Positions 18,564 through 61,060 of a stretch of DNA of 64,000 bases are shown here, piece after piece. How positions within the stretch are numbered: position 1 is the first letter of the stretch; each line of letters opens with the position of its first letter. The stretch lies in NCBI GenBank assembly GCA_036519575.1, contig DATDKZ010000162.1:1628-65627 (forward strand). The letters are read 5' to 3'. The translations under genes and the position numbers were made by a program. Under the pieces are notes generated by a model. The model worked only from the letters and a program-made list of their open reading frames with translations. It was not told the DNA's origin and did not search any database. This stretch comes from Actinomycetota bacterium. GTDB taxonomy: Bacteria; Actinomycetota; UBA4738; HRBIN12.

Positions 18564-19355
18564 CTACTCGTAGGAGTGATCGGGGTCGGGGAACGTGCCC
18601 GCCTGGACCTCGCGAGCGAACGCTCCTGCGGCCTCCGCGATCTCCTCGCGCAGGTTCGCGTACGCCTTGGCGAACTTGGGCGGCTTGCTCTCCGACAGTC
18701 CCAGCAGATCCGTGATCACGAGCACCTGCGCGTCGCACCCCGGCCCCGCCCCGATGCCGATGGTAGGGATGTGCAGGTGCTCGGTGATCCGCGTTCCGAG
18801 CTCTGCCGGGACGCCTTCCAGGACGATCGAGAACGCGCCTGCCTTCTGGAGGGCGCTCGCTTGCTCGAGGATACGGGTGGCAGCCTCCTCACCGCGGCCC
18901 TGCACCCGATAGCCACCCATCCCGTGCACCGATTGCGGGGTCAGGCCCACGTGTGCCATGACCGGTACACCGAGCTCCACCAGGCGATGGGTCAGCTCGA
19001 CCTGGGGCCCCTCGAGCTTGACGGCGTGAGCCCCGCCTTCCTTCAGGAATCGGCCGGCGTTTCGGACTCCCTCCTCCACAGAAACTTGGTACGAAAGGAA
19101 TGGCATGTCGGCCACGACCATCGCGCTCCGCGCGCCGCGGGTCACCGCGCGGACATGATGGAGCATCTCCTCCATGGTCACGGGCAAGGTGTTCTCATAC
19201 CCCAGCACGTTCTGGGCGAGTGAATCGCCCACCAAGAGCACCGGGATACCTGCCTGGTCGAGGATTCGGGCGGTGGGGAAGTCGTAGGCGGTCAGCATCG
19301 CCCACCGCATGCCCTCCGCCTTCCATCCACGCAGGTCATGGACGGTCACGGTCAT
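18564..19355 (-). CDS. panB: 3-methyl-2-oxobutanoate hydroxymethyltransferase (ketopantoate hydroxymethyltransferase)
   Basis: MTVTVHDLRGWK…AMLTAYDFPTARILDQAGIPVLLVGDSL is a strong PanB signature. Confidence 0.9.
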   Translation of the reverse strand: MTVTVHDLRGWKAEGMRWAMLTAYDFPTARILDQAGIPVLLVGDSLAQNVLGYENTLPVTMEEMLHHVRAVTRGARSAMVVADMPFLSYQVSVEEGVRNAGRFLKEGGAHAVKLEGPQVELTHRLVELGVPVMAHVGLTPQSVHGMGGYRVQGRGEEAATRILEQASALQKAGAFSIVLEGVPAELGTRITEHLHIPTIGIGAGPGCDAQVLVITDLLGLSESKPPKFAKAYANLREEIAEAAGAFAREVQAGTFPDPDHSYE

Positions 19356-19554
19356 CGCTCGCGCCTCCTTTCGCATGAGTGCACGGCTCCGAGAGTGTAA
19401 CCCGCGGCGGATGAGCCACCTTCCAGCTGACCCGGTGGCTGTCGGTGGCCGATGCTAGGGTCGCGCCCGTGGAACAGGAGAACGCTTCGGTGGCAGGCGG
19501 GTGGACCGCCGGTCGACCCGGTAGACTCTGGGGGCCAGCCACGTCCTGCTCCCG

Positions 19555-19875
19555 GTGGGGGCCGTCCAGACCAGAGGAGGTGGGGACCTGAGGTCCTACG
19601 AAGTGATGTTCATCGTTCCCCCCGAGGCCGACGAGTCGGTCGTCGGCGGGGTCATCGATCGGATCGCCAAGATCGTCTCCCAGGCGGGGGGCGAGGTGGG
19701 CAAAGTCGATCGATGGGGGCGGCGGCGCCTGGCCTACGAGATCGCCCGTCAGAGCGAGGGGTATTACGTCGTCGTGGCGTTCACGGCGGAGCCGTCGGTG
19801 ATCGCCGAACTCGAGCGGAGCCTGCACTTCGCCGACGAGGTGCTGCGGTTCAAGGTGGTCCAGAGAGCCGCCTAA
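19555..19875 (+). CDS. rpsF: 30S ribosomal protein S6
   Basis: …LRSYEVMFIVPPEADE…GRRRLAYEI… The conserved S6 N-terminus aligns to an in-frame CTG at 19588, 7 nt after GAGGAGG. The annotated GTG at 19555 would add 11 residues. Confidence 0.85.
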   Translation: MGAVQTRGGGDLRSYEVMFIVPPEADESVVGGVIDRIAKIVSQAGGEVGKVDRWGRRRLAYEIARQSEGYYVVVAFTAEPSVIAELERSLHFADEVLRFKVVQRAA

Positions 19876-20392: not shown

Positions 20393-20654
20393 GACCAAGA
20401 AGCGACCACCAAGAAAAGAAAAGGAAGAGAAGGCCTGGCAGAAGAAGCAGAAGAGGAAGGTCTGCATCTTCTGCAAGGACCGGATCGAGTACGTCGACTA
20501 CAAGGACGTCATGACGCTGCGCAAGTTCGTCTCCGAGCGGGGCAAGATCCGGGCCCGCCGGGTGACCGGCAACTGCGCCCAGCATCAACGGGACGTGGCT
20601 GTGGCGGTCAAGAACGCGCGCGAGATGGCGCTGCTTCCGTACTCCAGTCGATGA
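20382..20654 (+). CDS. rpsR: 30S ribosomal protein S18 with Lys-rich N-terminal extension
   Basis: [60 protein letters not shown]. Overlaps the ssb 3' end by 11 nt. Confidence 0.9.
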
Positions 20655-21100
20655 AGGTCATCCTCCAGAAGCCCGTCGACAAGCTCGGCGTGCCCGGGGA
20701 TGTGGTCGATGTCGCCGACGGGTATGCCCGTAACTACCTGATGCCCCGGGGCCTGGCGGTCAGGGCTTCCAAGGGCGGCGTGAAGCACGTCGAGAGCCTG
20801 AAACGGGCCCATACCACCAAGGTGTCTCAGGCCCAGGCTGAGGCCCAGGAGGTTGCCGATCGGCTGACCGCGAGCCCGATCAAGGTGAGGGCTCGGGTAG
20901 GCGAGGAGGGCAGGCTATTCGGGAGCGTGACTGCGGCCGAGGTCGCGGAGGAGATCGAGCGCCAGACCGGGGTGAAGGTTGACCGTCGCGACGTCCGCCT
21001 GGACGAGCCCATCCGAAGCGTCGGGGTCCACCAGGTCACGGTGCACCTGTTCACGGATGTGGATCCCGCCGTCCCGGTCGAGGTCGAACCCGCCGAGTAG
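20651..21100 (+). CDS. rplI: 50S ribosomal protein L9
   Basis: [36 protein letters not shown]… is the L9 signature. Confidence 0.9.
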
Positions 21101-21111
21101 CGGGGTGTGCT

Positions 21112-21131
21112 GGGGTCGGCGGTACGACCCC
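21112..21131 (+). terminator. Hairpin after rplI (GGGGTCG-gcggta-CGACCCC)
   Basis: Perfect 7-bp stem 12 nt after the rplI stop. Confidence 0.35.
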
Positions 21132-21196
21132 CCGGCTGAACCAGCGACGCTCCGGTGTCCGTGCGCGCCCCGGACGGGTTCCTGACTTGCCGAATT

Positions 21197-21318
21197 ACAT
21201 GTGTGTCACTATGGGGTTGTACACACGTGTCCACGGCGTTTTCCACAGGTCCAGTGGCAGGTGGACGTGAGTCTGACAACAAACTTTCGGACCCCACCTG
21301 GGGCGGAATTGTCCACAG
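21197..21318 (+). promoter_or_regulatory. dnaB upstream region with three or four DnaA-box-like motifs and an AT-richer inverted repeat
   Basis: TTGTCCACA (21309-21317) matches the actinobacterial DnaA-box consensus. Also TTTTCCACA (21239-21247), TGTCCACG (21228-21235) and GTCCACC on the minus strand (21261-21268). IR ACATGTGTGT…ACACACGTGT at 21197-21230. Confidence 0.35.
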
Positions 21319-21393
21319 GCGATTTCCCCTTCCCTCCTGGGAGGCGGGCGTCTACCGTCTGCACCTCGCCGCGCGTTCGGGAGAGGGGGATCG

Positions 21394-22746
21394 TTGGCGA
21401 CGAGAGCTGACGATGTCCGCCGTCTCCGGCCCGAACGGGTACCGCCCCACAACCTGGAAGCCGAGGAGTCCGTCCTCGGCGCCATGATGCTCTCGACGGA
21501 GGCCATCGCCGACGTCGTCGAGGTGGTCAAGCCCGAGGACTTCTACAAGTCCGCGAACGGCACAATCTTCGACACGCTCCGGGGGATCTACGCGCGGGGT
21601 GATCCGGTCGATGCCATCACCGCAGTCGAGGACCTCCGACGGCGCGGTGTGCTGGAACAGGTCGGCGGGCACCTGTACATCCACGAGCTGGTCGAGCAGG
21701 TGCCGACACCGGCCGCGGCGGGCAACTACGCGCGGATCGTGGCGCAGCACGCGCTCCTGCGGCGACTGATCCAGGCGGCGGGCGACATCATGGAGATGGG
21801 GTACTCGGCCCCTGAGGACCCCGAGCGGGTGGCCGACGAAGCCGAGCAGCGCATCTACGACGTGGCCCGCCACGGCGAGAAGGACCAGGTGGCCTCCCTT
21901 CGGGAGCTGGTGGACCAGGCCATGACCGACCTGGAGCAGATCCAGAACCGGGAGTCGGCCTTCGCCGGCCTGCCGACCGGGTTCCGGGATCTGGACGAGC
22001 TGCTGTCGGGCCTGCAATCGGGCAACCTGGTGATCGTGGCGGCCCGTCCCGGCGTCGGGAAGTCCTCGTTCGCTACGAACGTCGCCAGGAACGCGGCGGT
22101 CGAGTCCAGGGTGCCCGTGGCGATGTTCTCACTCGAGATGTCGAGGTGGGAGATCGGGATGCGCCTCCTGTGCGGCGAGGCGGGGGTCCCTTGGGACCGG
22201 ATCCGGGGGCGGCGCGTGGGCGCCGATGACTGGTCGCGGGTCGTCCAAGCCGCGGAGGTCCTGCACGATGCGCCGCTGTCGATCGTGGACTCGGGCAACG
22301 TCACGATCGTCGATATCAGGGCCAAGGCCCGGCGGCTCGCAGCTCGGAGGCAGGGCCTGGGGCTGATCATCGTGGATTACCTCCAACTGATGTCGCACCA
22401 CCGAAGGGTGGACAACCGTCAGCAGGAGATCGCCGAGATCAGCAGGAGCCTCAAGCTCCTGGCCAAGGAGCTGAAGATCCCGGTCATCGCCGTCTCCCAG
22501 CTGAACCGGGACCCCGAGCGACGGCAGGACAAGCGCCCCCAGCTCTCGGACCTGCGCGAATCTGGTGCGATCGAACAGGATTCCGACGTCGTCATGTTCA
22601 TCCATCGCGATGACTCCGATCCGGCGAAGAAGGGACTCGCCGACCTGATCGTGGCCAAGCACCGGAATGGGCCGACCGACACGGTCCCCGTAACGTTCCT
22701 TCCGCATCTCACGCAGTTCCGGAACTACGCCCCGGCCTCCGCCTAG
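21394..22746 (+). CDS. dnaB: Replicative DNA helicase DnaB (no intein)
   Basis: N-terminal PPHNLEAEESVLGAMM, Walker A GARPGVGKSSFA, RecA-like C-terminal domain. TTG start 3 nt after AGGGGGA. Confidence 0.9.
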   Translation: MATRADDVRRLRPERVPPHNLEAEESVLGAMMLSTEAIADVVEVVKPEDFYKSANGTIFDTLRGIYARGDPVDAITAVEDLRRRGVLEQVGGHLYIHELVEQVPTPAAAGNYARIVAQHALLRRLIQAAGDIMEMGYSAPEDPERVADEAEQRIYDVARHGEKDQVASLRELVDQAMTDLEQIQNRESAFAGLPTGFRDLDELLSGLQSGNLVIVAARPGVGKSSFATNVARNAAVESRVPVAMFSLEMSRWEIGMRLLCGEAGVPWDRIRGRRVGADDWSRVVQAAEVLHDAPLSIVDSGNVTIVDIRAKARRLAARRQGLGLIIVDYLQLMSHHRRVDNRQQEIAEISRSLKLLAKELKIPVIAVSQLNRDPERRQDKRPQLSDLRESGAIEQDSDVVMFIHRDDSDPAKKGLADLIVAKHRNGPTDTVPVTFLPHLTQFRNYAPASA

Positions 22747-22773: not shown

Positions 22774-23463
22774 ATGACGGCCGATGCACGCCGTGTCCGC
22801 GCCATCCACCGCCGGCTGTTGCGGCATTTCGGCTCGCTCGAGCCGCCCCGTCGGAGCGATCCGCTCGACGAGCTCATCCTCACCGTGCTCTCGCAGAACA
22901 CGAGCGACGCCAACAGCTTCAGGGCCTACGAATCGCTTCGGGCCAGGTTCCCGACGTGGGAAGCACTGGCCGGGGCTCGCCCGTCGGAGGTTGCGGCCTC
23001 GATCCGCTCGGGCGGCCTGTCGAACGTGAAGGCGCCGCGCATCCTGGCCATCCTGCGCGCGATCCAGGAACGCGAGGGACATCTCGACCTGTCCCTCCTC
23101 CGCGGCAAGAGCGACGCGGACGCGCGAGACTACCTGACCTCCCTTCCAGGGGTCGGGCCGAAGACAGCGGCCGTTGTGCTGGCGTTCTCGCTCGATCGTC
23201 CGGCCCTCCCGGTGGATACGCACGTCCATCGCGTGGCGAGCCGCCTCGGCCTGATCCCGCCGAACTCGTCCGCGGCCAGGGCGCAGGACATCCTGGAGGC
23301 GATCACACCCGTGGACATCCGGGTCGCGATGCATGTCGGCCTGATCCGCTTAGGCCGGGAGATCTGCAAGCCGGGCCGGCCGAGGTGCGAGGTGTGTCCG
23401 CTCGCCGACCTGTGTCCCACAGCGCCCACGATCCTCGGCGAGAAGCCCCGAGGTGGTGCCTGA
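22774..23463 (+). CDS. nth: Endonuclease III-like HhH-GPD DNA glycosylase with a [4Fe-4S] cluster loop
   Basis: HhH-GPD motif LPGVGPKTAAVVL, catalytic D at PVDTHV, and C-x6-C-x2-C-x5-C (CKPGRPRCEVCPLADLC). Confidence 0.8.
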   Translation: MTADARRVRAIHRRLLRHFGSLEPPRRSDPLDELILTVLSQNTSDANSFRAYESLRARFPTWEALAGARPSEVAASIRSGGLSNVKAPRILAILRAIQEREGHLDLSLLRGKSDADARDYLTSLPGVGPKTAAVVLAFSLDRPALPVDTHVHRVASRLGLIPPNSSAARAQDILEAITPVDIRVAMHVGLIRLGREICKPGRPRCEVCPLADLCPTAPTILGEKPRGGA

Positions 23464-25372: not shown

Positions 25373-28300
25373 TCAGCCGATCTGAGGATCGCCCGACCGG
25401 GCGCCCAGCCGGTACAGGGCTCCCTCGGCCGCGGCCACGACCTCCGGCACGGGGTCGTTGAGGACCGCCGCGACGATCGCATCCGCACCGCGCGGATCCC
25501 CCAGCGTGGCCAGGAACTGCGTGGAGCGGAGCCGGATCCGCTCGTCCGGATCCGAGAGCACCCCGATCAGGGCGTCGACGGCCTCGGGGCCACCGACCGC
25601 TCCGATGGCCTCGACGGCCCGTAACCGCGCATCCGCTTCCGTGGAGTCGAGGCGTCCCGCGAGCCGGGCCACCCCGACCACGTCTCGGAGCAAGCCACCC
25701 ACGATGGGCACCACTTCGGCGGTCCCGTGGAGCAACACGTCGATGAGCAACTCCTGCGACGAGGGCCCGATCTTCCTCAGAAGGTCGGTGGCGGCATCGC
25801 GCAGGTTGGGAACGGCCAGCACACCGGCCAGCCGCTTGGCAACCGCTGGCGAGCTCCATTGAGTGAGGACCTCGCTGGCAGCCGTTCGCACCCCCGCATC
25901 GTCGTCCTGGAGCGCAGCCACCAGGAAGCCGAGCACCGCCTCGTCGTCGATGACGCCCAGGGCTCGCACGGCCTCCACCCGAACCTCGGGGAACGAATCG
26001 CCGATGGCATTGCCCAGCGCTTGCACCGCGGACGTGTCGCGGAGGCGCCCGAGAGCCGACGCGGCCGCCGCCCGAACCGCGGGGACCGGATCCTGGAGGG
26101 ACTGGATCGATGCCTCGAGGCAAGCCTGGCTCCCGCTCCATCCGGCCAGCTCGAGGGCCAGCACCCGTTCGTCCTGGTCGGGCGACGCGTGGTGCTTGAG
26201 CGCGAGCTCGGTCAGGGCGGCTTCGTTGGTGTGGGAGAACACCGAGCCGAGCTCGGTCCGCTCCTCGGGTCGGCACTGGCGAAGGGCCGACCACACGAAC
26301 TCGTGATCGTTATCCTCCCTGGTAGCGAGCTGGTTCATGGCCGCGCGCCTGACCGATTCTTCCCCATCGGACAATCCCTGGAGAACGAAGGGATCGGCCT
26401 CCCGACCCAGGCCCGGCGCGAGCTCATCGAGGGCCGCGGCCCGAACGACCGGATCGAGATCGGCCATCGCCCGGGTCATGGCAGCGGAGGTATCGATGTT
26501 GGCCATGGCGATCACGTGGACGGCTGCGGCTCGAAGGGGCGCCGACTGATCGGTCTCAAGCACGAACCGGGCGATGTCCACGTAGCTCGGGTCGCCGGAT
26601 TCACCCATCACCTCCAGGACCGCCATGCGGACCGGAACCGACGAGTCGTCGAGATGTCCCCGAAGGTAGGGCATCACGGTCGGACCCGACGCGCTCCAGA
26701 GCACTCGGATCGCCTCTGGTTTGCGAGATTCGTCCACCTGCCCCAGCAGGCCGATGAGGTCCTCCAGCCGCACCCGGGCGAGGGCCTTCAGGAACGGGTC
26801 GCGCGCCTCGAGCGGAAGCTCCATCGCTCGGTTCAGGATGTCTAGTCCGAGCTCGTAAAGGCGGAGCGCGCCCACGGTCTCCGCCGCGGCGGACGCCATC
26901 TCCACGTCACCGGTGCGCATGGCTTCGCGGGCCCACGCCAGCACACGGCCTCGCTCCACCCCTCCCAGGCTCGACCGTGCGAGGTAGCGGACCGCCTCGT
27001 CTGCATCGTGCAACGACCGGGCGAGTGACGCGATGCGTTCGGCCTCCACCGGAGCAAGGGACGCGTCGTCGGCGAACTCCGTTCCGGCGACCGCGGACTC
27101 GTCGGTTCGGGCGATGGCGTCGGCGGCGACCTCCGCCACTTCGCGGATCTCGTCCAGGGGGTCCGAGACCAGGGTGGCCAGCGCCCGGAGGATCTCCGGA
27201 GCCTCTTCGCCCTCCACCAGGATCCGGACGGCCCCCAGACGCCTGACGTCGGGCAGCGACAGGCTACCGACCAGTCGCGAGATGCCGATGGCCCGGCTGA
27301 GCCGCGCGATCGATGTGCCTTCTGCGGTTGTGGGCGGGGAATCCATCTCGCCGATCGAGGTCAGGAGCAGGTCGAGCTCGGTCTCATCGAGGGTGGACGT
27401 CGATGCCAAGAGCTCGGGCAGCAGCTCGAGCGCTGCCGCTTGGGTGAGCGGCCAGCGGCGTGCGGCGATCAGCGGAGCAAGTAGCACGAGATCCCGAGAA
27501 CCACGTTCGGCTGCAAGGCGAACCGCCGCGGCCCGAACCTCGTCGGCTGGGTCCATGAGTGCCTGCTTGATCGTGGCGTCGTCGACACGGTCGGCCCGGT
27601 TCGACAGGACCCCTAGGGCCAACCGGCGGACCTCCTGATCCGGGTCGAGCAACAAGCCAACGACCTGCTCCAGCTCGCTATCGCCCGGGCCGCGCTCGTT
27701 AAGCTCCCGGAGGGCACGGCGCCGCTCGTCCGGATCGCGAGCGGCAAGCGAAGGGCCGACGGACTCCGGCTGGGGCTCCGGCGCCGGCTCCGGACGCGGC
27801 TCGTCAGCTTGGCTGGGCGCAACATCGGCTTTCCAAGCGCCGGCTTCGACAGCTTCAACGGCTTGGGCAGGTCCGCCCGGCTCGGCCGCGACGGCACGAT
27901 CCGGTTCGACGGGCTCGGGGCTGTGAGGAGCCTCCGGCTTTGCCGCCCTGAGCGCACTCAGCCGTCGCTGCAGGATTTCGACGGCCGAGGGCTTCGAGAC
28001 ATCCGCCGCAGGTTGCTCGGGCTCAACCGGCGCTGGCGGCTCGGGGATCTCCGCCGCAGGTTGCTCGGGCTCAACCGGCGCGGGCGGCTCGAGGATCTCC
28101 GCCGCAGGTTGCTCGGGCTCAACCGGTGCTGGCGCCTCTGACGTCTGGGGGGCAGGCTGCTCGAGCTTCGGCGGTGCCTGCGGCTCATCCTCGGACGAGC
28201 GCTGATCAGGCGGTTGCGAGGCGGCGGGGGCCTCCTCCTCATCCTCCTCCGCGATCTTGGCGCGGCGCTCTGCCAGCGCCTTCAAGCTCCGGTACCAATC

Positions 28301-28450
28301 CTCCTCGTACGCGTCCACCTGTTTGCCCTTCGGAGGTGAGCCATCCGCTTCGGAGCCCCCGGCTGCGCCGGAGGAGGCGTCACTGTCCTCGGATCCGTCT
28401 TCTCCCTTCTGGCCGAGGAAGCCGCCGATCAGACCCTGCTTGCGTTCCAT
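25373..28450 (-). CDS. Large HEAT-repeat (PBS-lyase/E-Z type) protein with an approximately 270-aa acidic Pro/Glu-rich disordered N-terminal region
   Basis: 1,025 aa with more than 15 degenerate HEAT units (DPxxEVRxxAxxxLGxLG). N-terminus MERKQGLIGGFLGQKGE…DWYRSLKALAERRAKIAEE, followed by 16-aa tandem repeats PPAPVEPEQPAAEIxE. Confidence 0.75.
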   Translation of the reverse strand: MERKQGLIGGFLGQKGEDGSEDSDASSGAAGGSEADGSPPKGKQVDAYEEDWYRSLKALAERRAKIAEEDEEEAPAASQPPDQRSSEDEPQAPPKLEQPAPQTSEAPAPVEPEQPAAEILEPPAPVEPEQPAAEIPEPPAPVEPEQPAADVSKPSAVEILQRRLSALRAAKPEAPHSPEPVEPDRAVAAEPGGPAQAVEAVEAGAWKADVAPSQADEPRPEPAPEPQPESVGPSLAARDPDERRRALRELNERGPGDSELEQVVGLLLDPDQEVRRLALGVLSNRADRVDDATIKQALMDPADEVRAAAVRLAAERGSRDLVLLAPLIAARRWPLTQAAALELLPELLASTSTLDETELDLLLTSIGEMDSPPTTAEGTSIARLSRAIGISRLVGSLSLPDVRRLGAVRILVEGEEAPEILRALATLVSDPLDEIREVAEVAADAIARTDESAVAGTEFADDASLAPVEAERIASLARSLHDADEAVRYLARSSLGGVERGRVLAWAREAMRTGDVEMASAAAETVGALRLYELGLDILNRAMELPLEARDPFLKALARVRLEDLIGLLGQVDESRKPEAIRVLWSASGPTVMPYLRGHLDDSSVPVRMAVLEVMGESGDPSYVDIARFVLETDQSAPLRAAAVHVIAMANIDTSAAMTRAMADLDPVVRAAALDELAPGLGREADPFVLQGLSDGEESVRRAAMNQLATREDNDHEFVWSALRQCRPEERTELGSVFSHTNEAALTELALKHHASPDQDERVLALELAGWSGSQACLEASIQSLQDPVPAVRAAAASALGRLRDTSAVQALGNAIGDSFPEVRVEAVRALGVIDDEAVLGFLVAALQDDDAGVRTAASEVLTQWSSPAVAKRLAGVLAVPNLRDAATDLLRKIGPSSQELLIDVLLHGTAEVVPIVGGLLRDVVGVARLAGRLDSTEADARLRAVEAIGAVGGPEAVDALIGVLSDPDERIRLRSTQFLATLGDPRGADAIVAAVLNDPVPEVVAAAEGALYRLGARSGDPQIG
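27992..28135. repeat. 48-bp coding tandem repeat, about three copies, inside the HEAT-protein gene
   Basis: The motif ccgccgcagg recurs at 48-nt intervals (period 48) with near-identical units that diverge in the third copy. Encodes 3 x PPAPVEPEQPAAEI. Confidence 0.7.
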
Positions 28451-60086: not shown

Positions 60087-61060
60087 CAGTGGCTCACCAC
60101 CGTGCGCACGGCGGCCGTGATCCGCTCGATGCTGGGCAGGTACCGCTGTTCGAGGGCCGCCGGCGGATACGGTACGTCGTAGCCCGTCACCCGAAGAACC
60201 GGCGCCTCCAGGTAGTCGAACCCCTCCTCCATGACCCGGGCGGCGATCTCGGCGCCCATCCCCAACGTCCGAGGTGCCTCGTGTACCACGACGACGCGGC
60301 CGGTCCTCCGCACGGACTCGGCGAGCGTCTGGAGGTCGAGGGGAACGAGCGAGCGGAGGTCGAGCACGCGGCAGGAGAGGCGTTCACGCGCAAGGACCTC
60401 GGCCGCCTCGAGACATCGCGTGACCATGGCCCCATAGGTGACGAGTGTGCAGGCGTCGCCCTCCCGCCGGATCCACGCCCTGCCGATGGGCGGCCCATCC
60501 ACCGCGAGCTCGCCATGTTCCTTGGCCCAGTACCGGCTCTTCGGCTCGAGAAAGATCACCGGGTCGGGGTCGGCGATCGCGAGCGCCAGCAATCGGTAGG
60601 CGTCCAGCGCGCCTGATGGGACCACCACCTTCAGCCCGGCTGTATGCGCGTAATAGGTCTCCGGGCTCTCGCCGTGGTGCTCCTTGCCCCGGATACCGCC
60701 GAACGAGGGGATCCGTATGACGATCGGCATCGAGGTCCGGCCCCGCGTGCGCGTCCGGTACTTGGCGATATGGCTGACGATCTGGTCAAGCGCCGGATAG
60801 GAGAACCCATCGAACTGCATCTCGGCGACGGGCCGCCAGCCGGCCAGCGAGAGGCCGACGCAGATCCCGGCGATTCCGGCCTCCGCGATCGGCGTGTTGA
60901 ACACCCGTTCCGGGCCGAATGCGCGCTGCAGGCCCTCGGTGACGCGATACACTCCGCCGAGCTCACCGACGTCCTCACCGAACACCAGCGTCCGGGGGTC
61001 GTTGTTCAGGGCATCGCGGAGCGCGGCGTTCAGCGCGGCGACCATCGTGTACTCAGCCAT
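60086..61060 (-). CDS. 2-oxoacid dehydrogenase E1 component beta subunit
   Basis: 324 aa transketolase-like C-terminal fold; MAEYTMVAALNAALRDALNNDPRTLVFGEDVG. Confidence 0.9.
   Translation of the reverse strand: MAEYTMVAALNAALRDALNNDPRTLVFGEDVGELGGVYRVTEGLQRAFGPERVFNTPIAEAGIAGICVGLSLAGWRPVAEMQFDGFSYPALDQIVSHIAKYRTRTRGRTSMPIVIRIPSFGGIRGKEHHGESPETYYAHTAGLKVVVPSGALDAYRLLALAIADPDPVIFLEPKSRYWAKEHGELAVDGPPIGRAWIRREGDACTLVTYGAMVTRCLEAAEVLARERLSCRVLDLRSLVPLDLQTLAESVRRTGRVVVVHEAPRTLGMGAEIAARVMEEGFDYLEAPVLRVTGYDVPYPPAALEQRYLPSIERITAAVRTVVSH

Follow-up and report, generated by a model that had tools for sequence, protein, structure and literature searches.

In mycobacteria, the region between rplI and dnaB, the gene of the replicative helicase, is an experimentally documented target of the initiator protein DnaA. 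A DnaA pull-down of M. tuberculosis genomic DNA (IDAP-seq; Hicks et al. 2020) had its top windows at 60175 and 60200, 195-220 nt upstream of dnaB, and sequencing after chromatin immunoprecipitation (ChIP-seq) in M. smegmatis placed the strongest DnaA peak in the dnaB-rplI region, with a fold enrichment of 225 compared with 44 for oriC (PMC7738170). Furthermore, a DnaA I282T mutant showed weaker binding upstream of dnaB together with under-expression of dnaB (PMC7738170). M. tuberculosis dnaB is DNA damage-inducible and partly PafBC-dependent, with a LexA motif in its promoter (PMC8151990, PMC3381160), and is activated by WhiA and WhiB2 (PMC13473873). The RecA-NDp/PafBC promoter class, which drives DNA-damage-inducible genes in mycobacteria, is recognized by the motif tTGTCRgtg-N8-TAnnnT, equivalent to TGTC(G/A)(G/C)-N10-TAnnnT (PMC8151990). 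The dnaB gene of Caulobacter belongs to the DnaA regulon (PMC8203912), and mycobacteria are reported to lack the DnaA-activity regulators known from E. coli and B. subtilis (PMC5720831). Here, the rplI-dnaB intergenic region was analyzed in a stretch of 64,000 nucleotides, hereafter the window, from an uncultured Actinomycetota bacterium (GenBank assembly GCA_036519575.1, contig DATDKZ010000162.1, positions 1,628 to 65,627). Positions 21192-21358 of the window are probably a dnaB promoter and regulatory region carrying a genuine DnaA-box cluster, with DnaA setting the transcription of dnaB, a reading somewhat more likely than not.

The gene order rpsF-ssb-rpsR-rplI, followed by dnaB, was confirmed by Pfam matches to S6, SSB, S18, L9 and DnaB. 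The 293-bp gap between rplI (20651-21100) and dnaB (21394-22746, TTG start) has a G+C content of 0.648, and its core at 21197-21318 one of 0.557, the lowest local value, compared with 0.684 for the window. The AT-richer gap described in an earlier reading of the letters alone (the sequence-only reading) was thus recovered, as were its perfect DnaA box at 21309, its two near matches at 21217 and 21239, and its reverse TCCAC core at 21261-65, which lies inside a conserved central block; a further site with two mismatches was found at 21227 (Table 1). Several 9-mers fitting TT(A/G/T)TCCACA or TTWTNCACA inside ~100-150 bp were counted as a cluster, and such a cluster is present here, with boxes 0, 1 and 2 in tandem, in one orientation and in a 10- and 12-bp register. 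Sites were scored with the mycobacterial position weight matrix (PWM) of Hicks et al. 2020 (PMC7738170, Table S10), for which the maximum score is 15.18 and only 0.25% of background 9-mers reach 10 or more. The site at 21309 was the top PWM site of the window. Matches with at most one mismatch numbered 12 in 64 kb, three of them inside 101 bp at this position, and three of the 18 sites scoring at least 13 in the window belonged to the cluster. At thresholds of 8, 9 and 10, the 150-bp segment richest in sites in the whole 64 kb started at 21161. Three or more sites scoring at least 13 within 101 bp arose anywhere in only 4 of 300 block shuffles preserving local composition, so that the matrix scan against background, one of the checks put forward with the sequence-only reading, returned the densest cluster of the 64 kb.

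Table 1. Features of the rplI-dnaB intergenic region in the window. PWM, score with the mycobacterial DnaA-box matrix; consensus and percentages are from an alignment of 63 sequences including the window (A1); P1 and P2 are putative promoters.
Feature	Position	Strand	Sequence in the window	Consensus in A1	PWM ≥10 in A1	Remarks
Imperfect 20-bp palindrome	21192-21211	+	GAATTACA-TGTG-TGTCACTA			From alignments; upstream of or overlapping the TGTC box
PafBC/RecA-NDp-type motif, putative distal promoter P1	21204-21225	+	TGTCAC-N10-TACACA			-10 is the 3' part of box 0
Box 0, DnaA-like	21217-21225	+	TTGTACACA	TGATACACA	81%	One mismatch; PWM 13.41; T4 and C6-A9 90-97% conserved
Box 1, DnaA-like	21227-21235	+	GTGTCCACG	TTGTCCACA	86%	Two mismatches, degenerate in the window; PWM 7.61; median PWM in A1 12.79
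Box 2, DnaA-like	21239-21247	+	TTTTCCACA	TTTTCCACA	73%	One mismatch; PWM 13.40; median PWM in A1 13.4; starts 12 bp after the start of box 1
Central block	21257-21303	+	GCAGGTGGAC..CTGACAACAAACTT..CCACCTGGGG			Most conserved part of A1
Candidate 45-codon upstream ORF (tentative)	21273-21410	+				CTG start; TGA at 21408-10 overlaps the dnaB start
Box 3, perfect DnaA box	21309-21317	+	TTGTCCACA	GTTTCCCCA	37%	PWM 14.79; ~-56..-48 from the putative P2 transcription start; kept in position as wwTCC(A/C)CA
Box 4, conserved TTwTCC motif	21322-21330	+	ATTTCCCCT	TTTTCCGCT	11%	Poor DnaA box; abuts the P2 -35 position
Proximal -10-like hexamer, putative P2	21353-21358	+	TACCGT			41 nt before the dnaB start
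Shine-Dalgarno and dnaB TTG start codon	21379-21396	+	GGGAGAGGGGG (21379-89)			From gene-context analysis

Tandem boxes of the same orientation with a 3-bp spacer, in the region of lowest local G+C, recall the core of bacterial origins, and the region was examined as an oriC displaced from dnaA or as a secondary origin. This explanation was rejected as having next to no likelihood. Neither dnaA nor dnaN was found in the 64 kb; no DnaA signature motifs were detected in the six-frame translation and no Bac_DnaA or beta-clamp domain was detected among 30 open reading frames (ORFs), the large ones included, that were scanned by Pfam. No GC-skew switch occurs in the window, no AT-rich unwinding element was found (the minimum is ~56% G+C), no DnaA-trio-like repeats follow box 2, and the element is bound up with dnaB and with promoter motifs. 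The statement of the sequence-only reading that this is not oriC, dnaA and dnaN not being here, therefore holds for the window.

In order to establish whether the cluster is retained in relatives, a DnaB scan of a genome collection was performed, yielding 80 loci from uncultured Actinomycetota metagenome-assembled genomes with DnaB proteins 71-98% identical; rplI lies upstream of dnaB in most of them, 220 to 2500 bp away. Boxes were sought in the 320 bp upstream of dnaB, then in an anchored view of the upstream regions, and then with a profile built from the conserved block. Plus-oriented TTnTCCACA occurred at -146..-202 in most loci, often paired 12 bp apart, and the anchored view revealed that the boxes are embedded in a larger conserved block. 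With the profile, 68 of the 80 relatives and the window (69 sequences) each gave exactly one copy of this module, oriented as dnaB and situated just upstream of it; in the window it spans 21182-21344, and neither the window nor the flanks held further copies. The module is ~165 nt long by the profile and ~180 nt when measured out to the proximal -10, and it stays with dnaB even where extra genes part rplI from dnaB. Among the relatives, the density of sites with a PWM score of at least 12 was 11.6 per kb in -230..-60 as against 0.53 per kb elsewhere, a 22-fold enrichment; 129 of the 140 sites in that interval were on the plus strand and 11 on the minus strand. Of 64 sequences that carry the module and extend far enough upstream (63 relatives and the window), 62 had at least one such site in this interval, and the top PWM cluster of the ~7-kb locus lay upstream of dnaB in 58 of 71 relatives. 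Conservation of boxes upstream of dnaB in relatives, the second check attached to the sequence-only reading, was therefore observed, and the cluster is confirmed as real and evolutionarily conserved.

The individual boxes differ in their conservation. Based upon per-box PWM conservation in alignment A1, from which all box consensus sequences and inverted-repeat counts were derived, conservation among the DnaA-like boxes resides in the tandem trio at 21217, 21227 and 21239. The consensus sequences of boxes 1 and 2 include the flanking T1 and T2, and perfect TTGTCCACA pairs are present in several relatives. Box 3 makes a good DnaA box chiefly in the window's own genome and the relatives closest to it, and by its DnaA-box score it ranks as the least conserved of the good boxes; similar boxes were seen in sister loci of a LexA type described below. 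The emphasis that had been laid on the perfect box is thus justified for the window, where it scores best, but not for the lineage, in which the conserved boxes are those at 21217-21247 and the box at 21309 is good in only about a third of relatives. An imperfect inverted repeat had also been reported, ACATGTGTGT-N14-ACACACGTGT (21197-21206 and 21221-21230). It is present, with 9 of 10 positions complementary and the arms 14 nt apart, but it is not conserved: at least 8 of 10 positions were retained in only 9 of the 63 aligned sequences, the window included, and the repeat was for this reason regarded as incidental and rejected as a functional element.

The boxes form just one portion of a more extensive conserved promoter module, which also comprises a PafBC-type box, a second -10 and the central block and which goes beyond what the sequence-only reading described. 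The stretch TGTCAC-N10-TACACA has the form of the mycobacterial RecA-NDp/PafBC motif, a pattern with only two matches in 64 kb (21204-21225 and 19440-61). Its loose form, TGTC[AG]N-N10-(T/C)A, was found at -280..-100 from dnaB in 71 of 72 sequences, compared with a background of 0.10 per kb; the hexamer was TACACA (33), CACACT (16) or CACAAT (6), and the strict TAnnnT was present in only five. Tandem boxes 0-2 overlap the -10 and +1 of the P1 motif. A proximal hexamer, TA[GC][GC]nT (TAGCGT, TAGCCT, TAGGGT), lies 35-73 nt before the dnaB start in nearly all loci, the LexA-type ones included. Box 3 is just upstream of the -35 position of this putative promoter, P2. A sigma-70 consensus scan of 20600-21900 returned no promoter and no intrinsic terminator, as expected for actinobacterial promoters. 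The palindrome at the upstream edge of the module takes the form GAAT(C/G)ACA-N4-TGT(G/C)ATTC in relatives and is perfect in some, e.g. GAATGACAGGCGTGTCATTC in locus L041. It was also seen, for example, in L015, L033 and L026, and in some relatives its minus strand contains GACACGCC, the motif of WhiA/WhiB2 in mycobacteria.

The second match in the window, at 19440-61, is the canonical TGTCGGTGGCCGATGCTAGGGT, also written TGTCGGTG-N8-TAGGGT, and it lies upstream of the rpsF-ssb (-rpsR-rplI) operon. Canonical TGTCGG-N10-TAGGGT was present upstream of rpsF-ssb, at ~-100 to -200 from rpsF, in all 40 sequences for which the region was available (39 relatives and the window), and the lineage therefore probably uses the PafBC/RecA-NDp promoter class. 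The position of the motif suggests that the ssb operon may be wired to a LexA-independent DNA-damage response in this lineage. Downstream of this motif, at ~19515-19590, come another -10-like element, ccGGTAGACTCTGG, and an rpsF leader of high conservation (..CCTGCTCCC..GGGGGCCGTCCAGACCAGAGGAGGTGG). This leader looks like an autoregulatory leader of the S6:S18 type; in a permissive search of 19200-19700 against Rfam, no family was matched.

Eight sister loci do not contain the module, and all eight carry TGTC-N10-TAnnnT upstream of dnaB. In five of them (L031, L035, L062, L069 and L073) this promoter motif is directly followed, at -147..-194, by a LexA box such as TCGAACATGCGTTCGA, which places the tandem TCCACA boxes of the module in the operator position of LexA. 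Upstream of dnaB, GAAC-N4-GTTC was missing from each of the 69 sequences with the module, the window included. The LexA-type sister loci also contain GCAGGTC.GG, a part of the central block. This combination of a TGTC promoter and a LexA box parallels the twofold control by PafBC and LexA that has been reported for dnaB of M. tuberculosis. A separate GAAC-N4-GTTC LexA-type box was observed between dnaB and the next gene, ~140 nt past the dnaB stop, in L033, L034, L041 and L058. That TTCCACA-TGTGGAA of the module represents a LexA box, intact or diverged, was considered and rejected, as this palindrome is not conserved in the clade of the window, its arms do not hold to a consensus, and canonical LexA boxes occur in the sister loci.

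The case for control of dnaB transcription by DnaA is built upon the observed motifs, with their enrichment, conservation, constant spacing and placement with respect to promoter-like elements; binding by DnaA, both transcription starts and the direction of regulation were inferred from the near-universal DnaA-box consensus and the published mycobacterial data. DnaA would bind tandem boxes 0-2 cooperatively, and dnaB transcription would thereby follow the level of the initiator. Bound to boxes 0-2, over the -10 and +1, DnaA would occlude the distal promoter P1, while the box next to P2, at 21309, might stimulate or dampen the proximal promoter. Several observations weigh against this interpretation. 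The part of the module that is better conserved than the boxes, the central block, is not accounted for by DnaA. A7 and A9 are the least conserved core positions of the boxes, box 1 is degenerate in the window, and box 2 is TTTTCCCCC or TTTTCCTCA in several clades, from which poor DnaA binding is expected. The distal -10 is TACACA, CACACT or CACAAT and no clean TAnnnT. Furthermore, the I282T data hint at activation and the box positions at P1 suggest repression.

The main rival is that the cluster is chiefly a DnaA sink or a DnaA-inactivating locus, analogous to E. coli datA or to the DnaA-box clusters of B. subtilis, and serves the timing of initiation and not dnaB expression. Such a role is suggested by the M. 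smegmatis rplI-dnaB region being by far the strongest DnaA ChIP peak, well above oriC, and by several boxes sharing one orientation. The distance from the central block to the proximal -10 was exactly 80 nt in 52 of 64 sequences (79, 81, 91, 92 or 104 nt in the others), and the module of ~180 nt is therefore rigidly spaced, as expected of an ordered nucleoprotein complex. Against this, the module always accompanies dnaB, even where genes are inserted after rplI, its boxes coincide with promoter elements, only three or four of them are good, and a LexA operator at the same place in sister lineages points to transcriptional control. A role mainly in titration or inactivation was consequently judged unlikely. 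The sequence-only reading had left the choice between DnaA-dependent regulation of dnaB and a secondary titration site, and that joint proposal is supported by the density of the cluster, its conservation in relatives and the mycobacterial precedent.

The central block sits between the two groups of boxes and is more conserved than the boxes themselves. In relatives it reads GCAGGT..GTGACAAGGAATCT..CGACCWGCGG, at -155..-100 from dnaB, with its core also appearing as (G/A/C)TGACAAGGAATCT. A metagenome scan with the central 14-mer yielded at least 120 matching stretches. Among the matches listed, 11 contained the full element; all ten of these with enough flank lay upstream of dnaB, the remaining one having only ~100 nt of downstream sequence, and the other stretches were mostly low-GC chance matches. 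Because all ten listed full elements with enough flank were upstream of dnaB, there is no sign of a regulon, and the 14-mer was rejected as a regulon-wide transcription-factor site; with up to three mismatches it had no match in the window. Two of the metagenome loci (L084 and L180) displayed a further peculiarity, as DnaB C-terminal residues 390-448 align ~1.8-2 kb downstream of the element, which suggests a large insertion, possibly an intein, in the DnaB of these lineages.

The strong conservation of a block that is not a DnaA box, found only upstream of dnaB among the metagenome matches listed with enough flank, raises the possibility that the TCCACA-like repeats are not DnaA sites at all. 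They could instead be sites of another DNA-binding protein or be constrained as part of an initial transcribed region, of a 5' untranslated region (5' UTR) or of an upstream ORF linked with the translation of dnaB. A7 and A9 vary across whole clades (TCCCCA, TCCCCC), WhiA and WhiB2 also act on the M. tuberculosis dnaB promoter (PMC13473873), and a frame beginning (G/A/C)TG ACA, with boxes 3 and 4 inside it, runs without a stop as far as the dnaB start in 60 of the 69 sequences, compared with ~49% in shuffles; its start codon is GTG in 57, ATG in 8 and CTG in 3 sequences. This frame has a ratio of nonsynonymous to synonymous polymorphism (pN/pS) of ~1, as do all frames, and no 3-base periodicity, and its openness is largely explained by the indel-free 80-nt spacing, of which it is mostly a by-product. 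A translated small protein is a minor possibility on these data. Moreover, the consensus agrees with that of the DnaA box at 9 of 9 positions in box 1 and at 8 of 9 in box 2, several relatives hold perfect box pairs, and DnaA at the rplI-dnaB locus has experimental precedent in mycobacteria. An explanation without DnaA was accordingly considered improbable. None of the MtrA, WhiA, NrdR, parS, sigma-54, CsrA or IHF consensus sequences fitted the conserved elements in an informal comparison by eye.

A structured cis-regulatory RNA, such as a riboswitch or leader in the dnaB 5' UTR, was also examined. The conserved leader is long, local complementarity is present (CAGGTGG/CCACCTG in the window and TTCCACA/TGTGGAA in relatives), and a few changes look compensatory, one position being G-C in five and G-U in five sequences. 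However, RNAalifold returned 0 consensus pairs for 63 sequences, the structures predicted for each clade were mutually inconsistent, and a hand count at the second position of the CAGGT/ACCTG stem (A-T 28, A-A 19, T-T 7, T-A 5) gave no covariation. Rfam yielded no match at E≤10 in the window, nor at E≤1 in six relatives. On these grounds a structured RNA was disfavoured and rejected as very unlikely.

Returning to DnaA as the regulator of dnaB, a more far-reaching version can be formulated, which should be regarded as speculative and doubtful. The entire ~180-nt module, with its PafBC-type box, three tandem DnaA boxes, central block GCAGGT..GTGACAAGGAATCT..ACCTGC, two further boxes and proximal -10, may be an ancient, Actinomycetota-wide locus upon which DnaA assembles, the counterpart of the M. 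smegmatis peak. It would govern how much initiator is available, in the manner of datA or DARS, and would move dnaB from a damage-inducible to a housekeeping promoter and back; the central block would either serve an accessory factor as its site or mark where a coupling upstream ORF begins.

Additional features were observed around the module and elsewhere in the window. Directly after the rplI stop, at 21111-21133, lies a GC-rich hairpin, GGGGTCG-GCGGTA-CGACCCC (~-22 kcal/mol for 21101-21150); it has no T-tract and might act as a terminator or as a stem that stabilises the RNA. Behind dnaB, at 22774-23463, comes a repair gene of the endonuclease III-like (HhH-GPD) type, and the minus strand encodes, at 25373-28450, a protein of 1025 amino acids that consists nearly entirely of HEAT/PBS-lyase-type repeats. 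The window also contains two class A penicillin-binding proteins, a T2SSE ATPase, dnaK-dnaJ-clpB, a purine-biosynthesis cluster and a branched-chain 2-oxoacid dehydrogenase.

Compared with known systems, the closest is the DnaA-binding rplI-dnaB interval in M. tuberculosis and M. smegmatis, located within annotated Rv0057 (PMC7738170). The two share the phylum, the rplI-then-dnaB neighbourhood, a position ~150-220 nt ahead of the dnaB start and the presence of DnaA-box-like 9-mers in a cluster, and the mycobacterial dnaB promoter is likewise under damage control, by PafBC and LexA. Binding has been measured in mycobacteria, and the present locus comes from an uncultured Actinomycetota group. 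The TGTCAC-N10-TA at dnaB resembles mycobacterial RecA-NDp/PafBC promoters in motif, spacing and direction, a canonical copy stands upstream of rpsF-ssb in this lineage, and M. tuberculosis dnaB is itself partly PafBC-dependent; unlike those promoters, the -10 at dnaB is TACACA (or CACACT, CACAAT) and not TAnnnT. Promoters of DnaA regulons (dnaA autoregulation; dnaB, dnaQ and nrd of Caulobacter; B. subtilis clusters regulating neighbouring genes) also have boxes, closely spaced pairs included, that overlap or flank the promoters of replication genes, but here the boxes overlap a PafBC-type promoter inside a rigid ~180-nt module with further conserved blocks. E. coli datA and DARS and the oriC-proximal clusters of B. 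subtilis are similar as non-origin DnaA-box clusters of fixed geometry, and differ in that the present locus has fewer boxes and no recognisable IHF-type site and is tied to a promoter.

The M. smegmatis rplI-dnaB region outdoes oriC in DnaA ChIP, and a cluster of fixed geometry is kept at the same place across uncultured Actinomycetota. Together, these observations argue that the coupling of helicase supply to the initiator is an old, selected feature. The compact set of sequences, with perfect tandem boxes in some relatives and degenerate ones in others, is well suited to tests of DnaA action. To the mycobacterial findings the present analysis adds the element's conservation in a broad, uncultured lineage, an anatomy in which the tandem trio overlaps a PafBC-type promoter, the exchange of LexA for DnaA boxes, the rigid spacing and the central block. 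Since the pull-down and ChIP-seq peaks of mycobacteria lie at rplI-dnaB, the element appears to be the positional and functional counterpart of that known DnaA site, and because the same arrangement is known there by experiment, it represents a new example and not a new kind of element.

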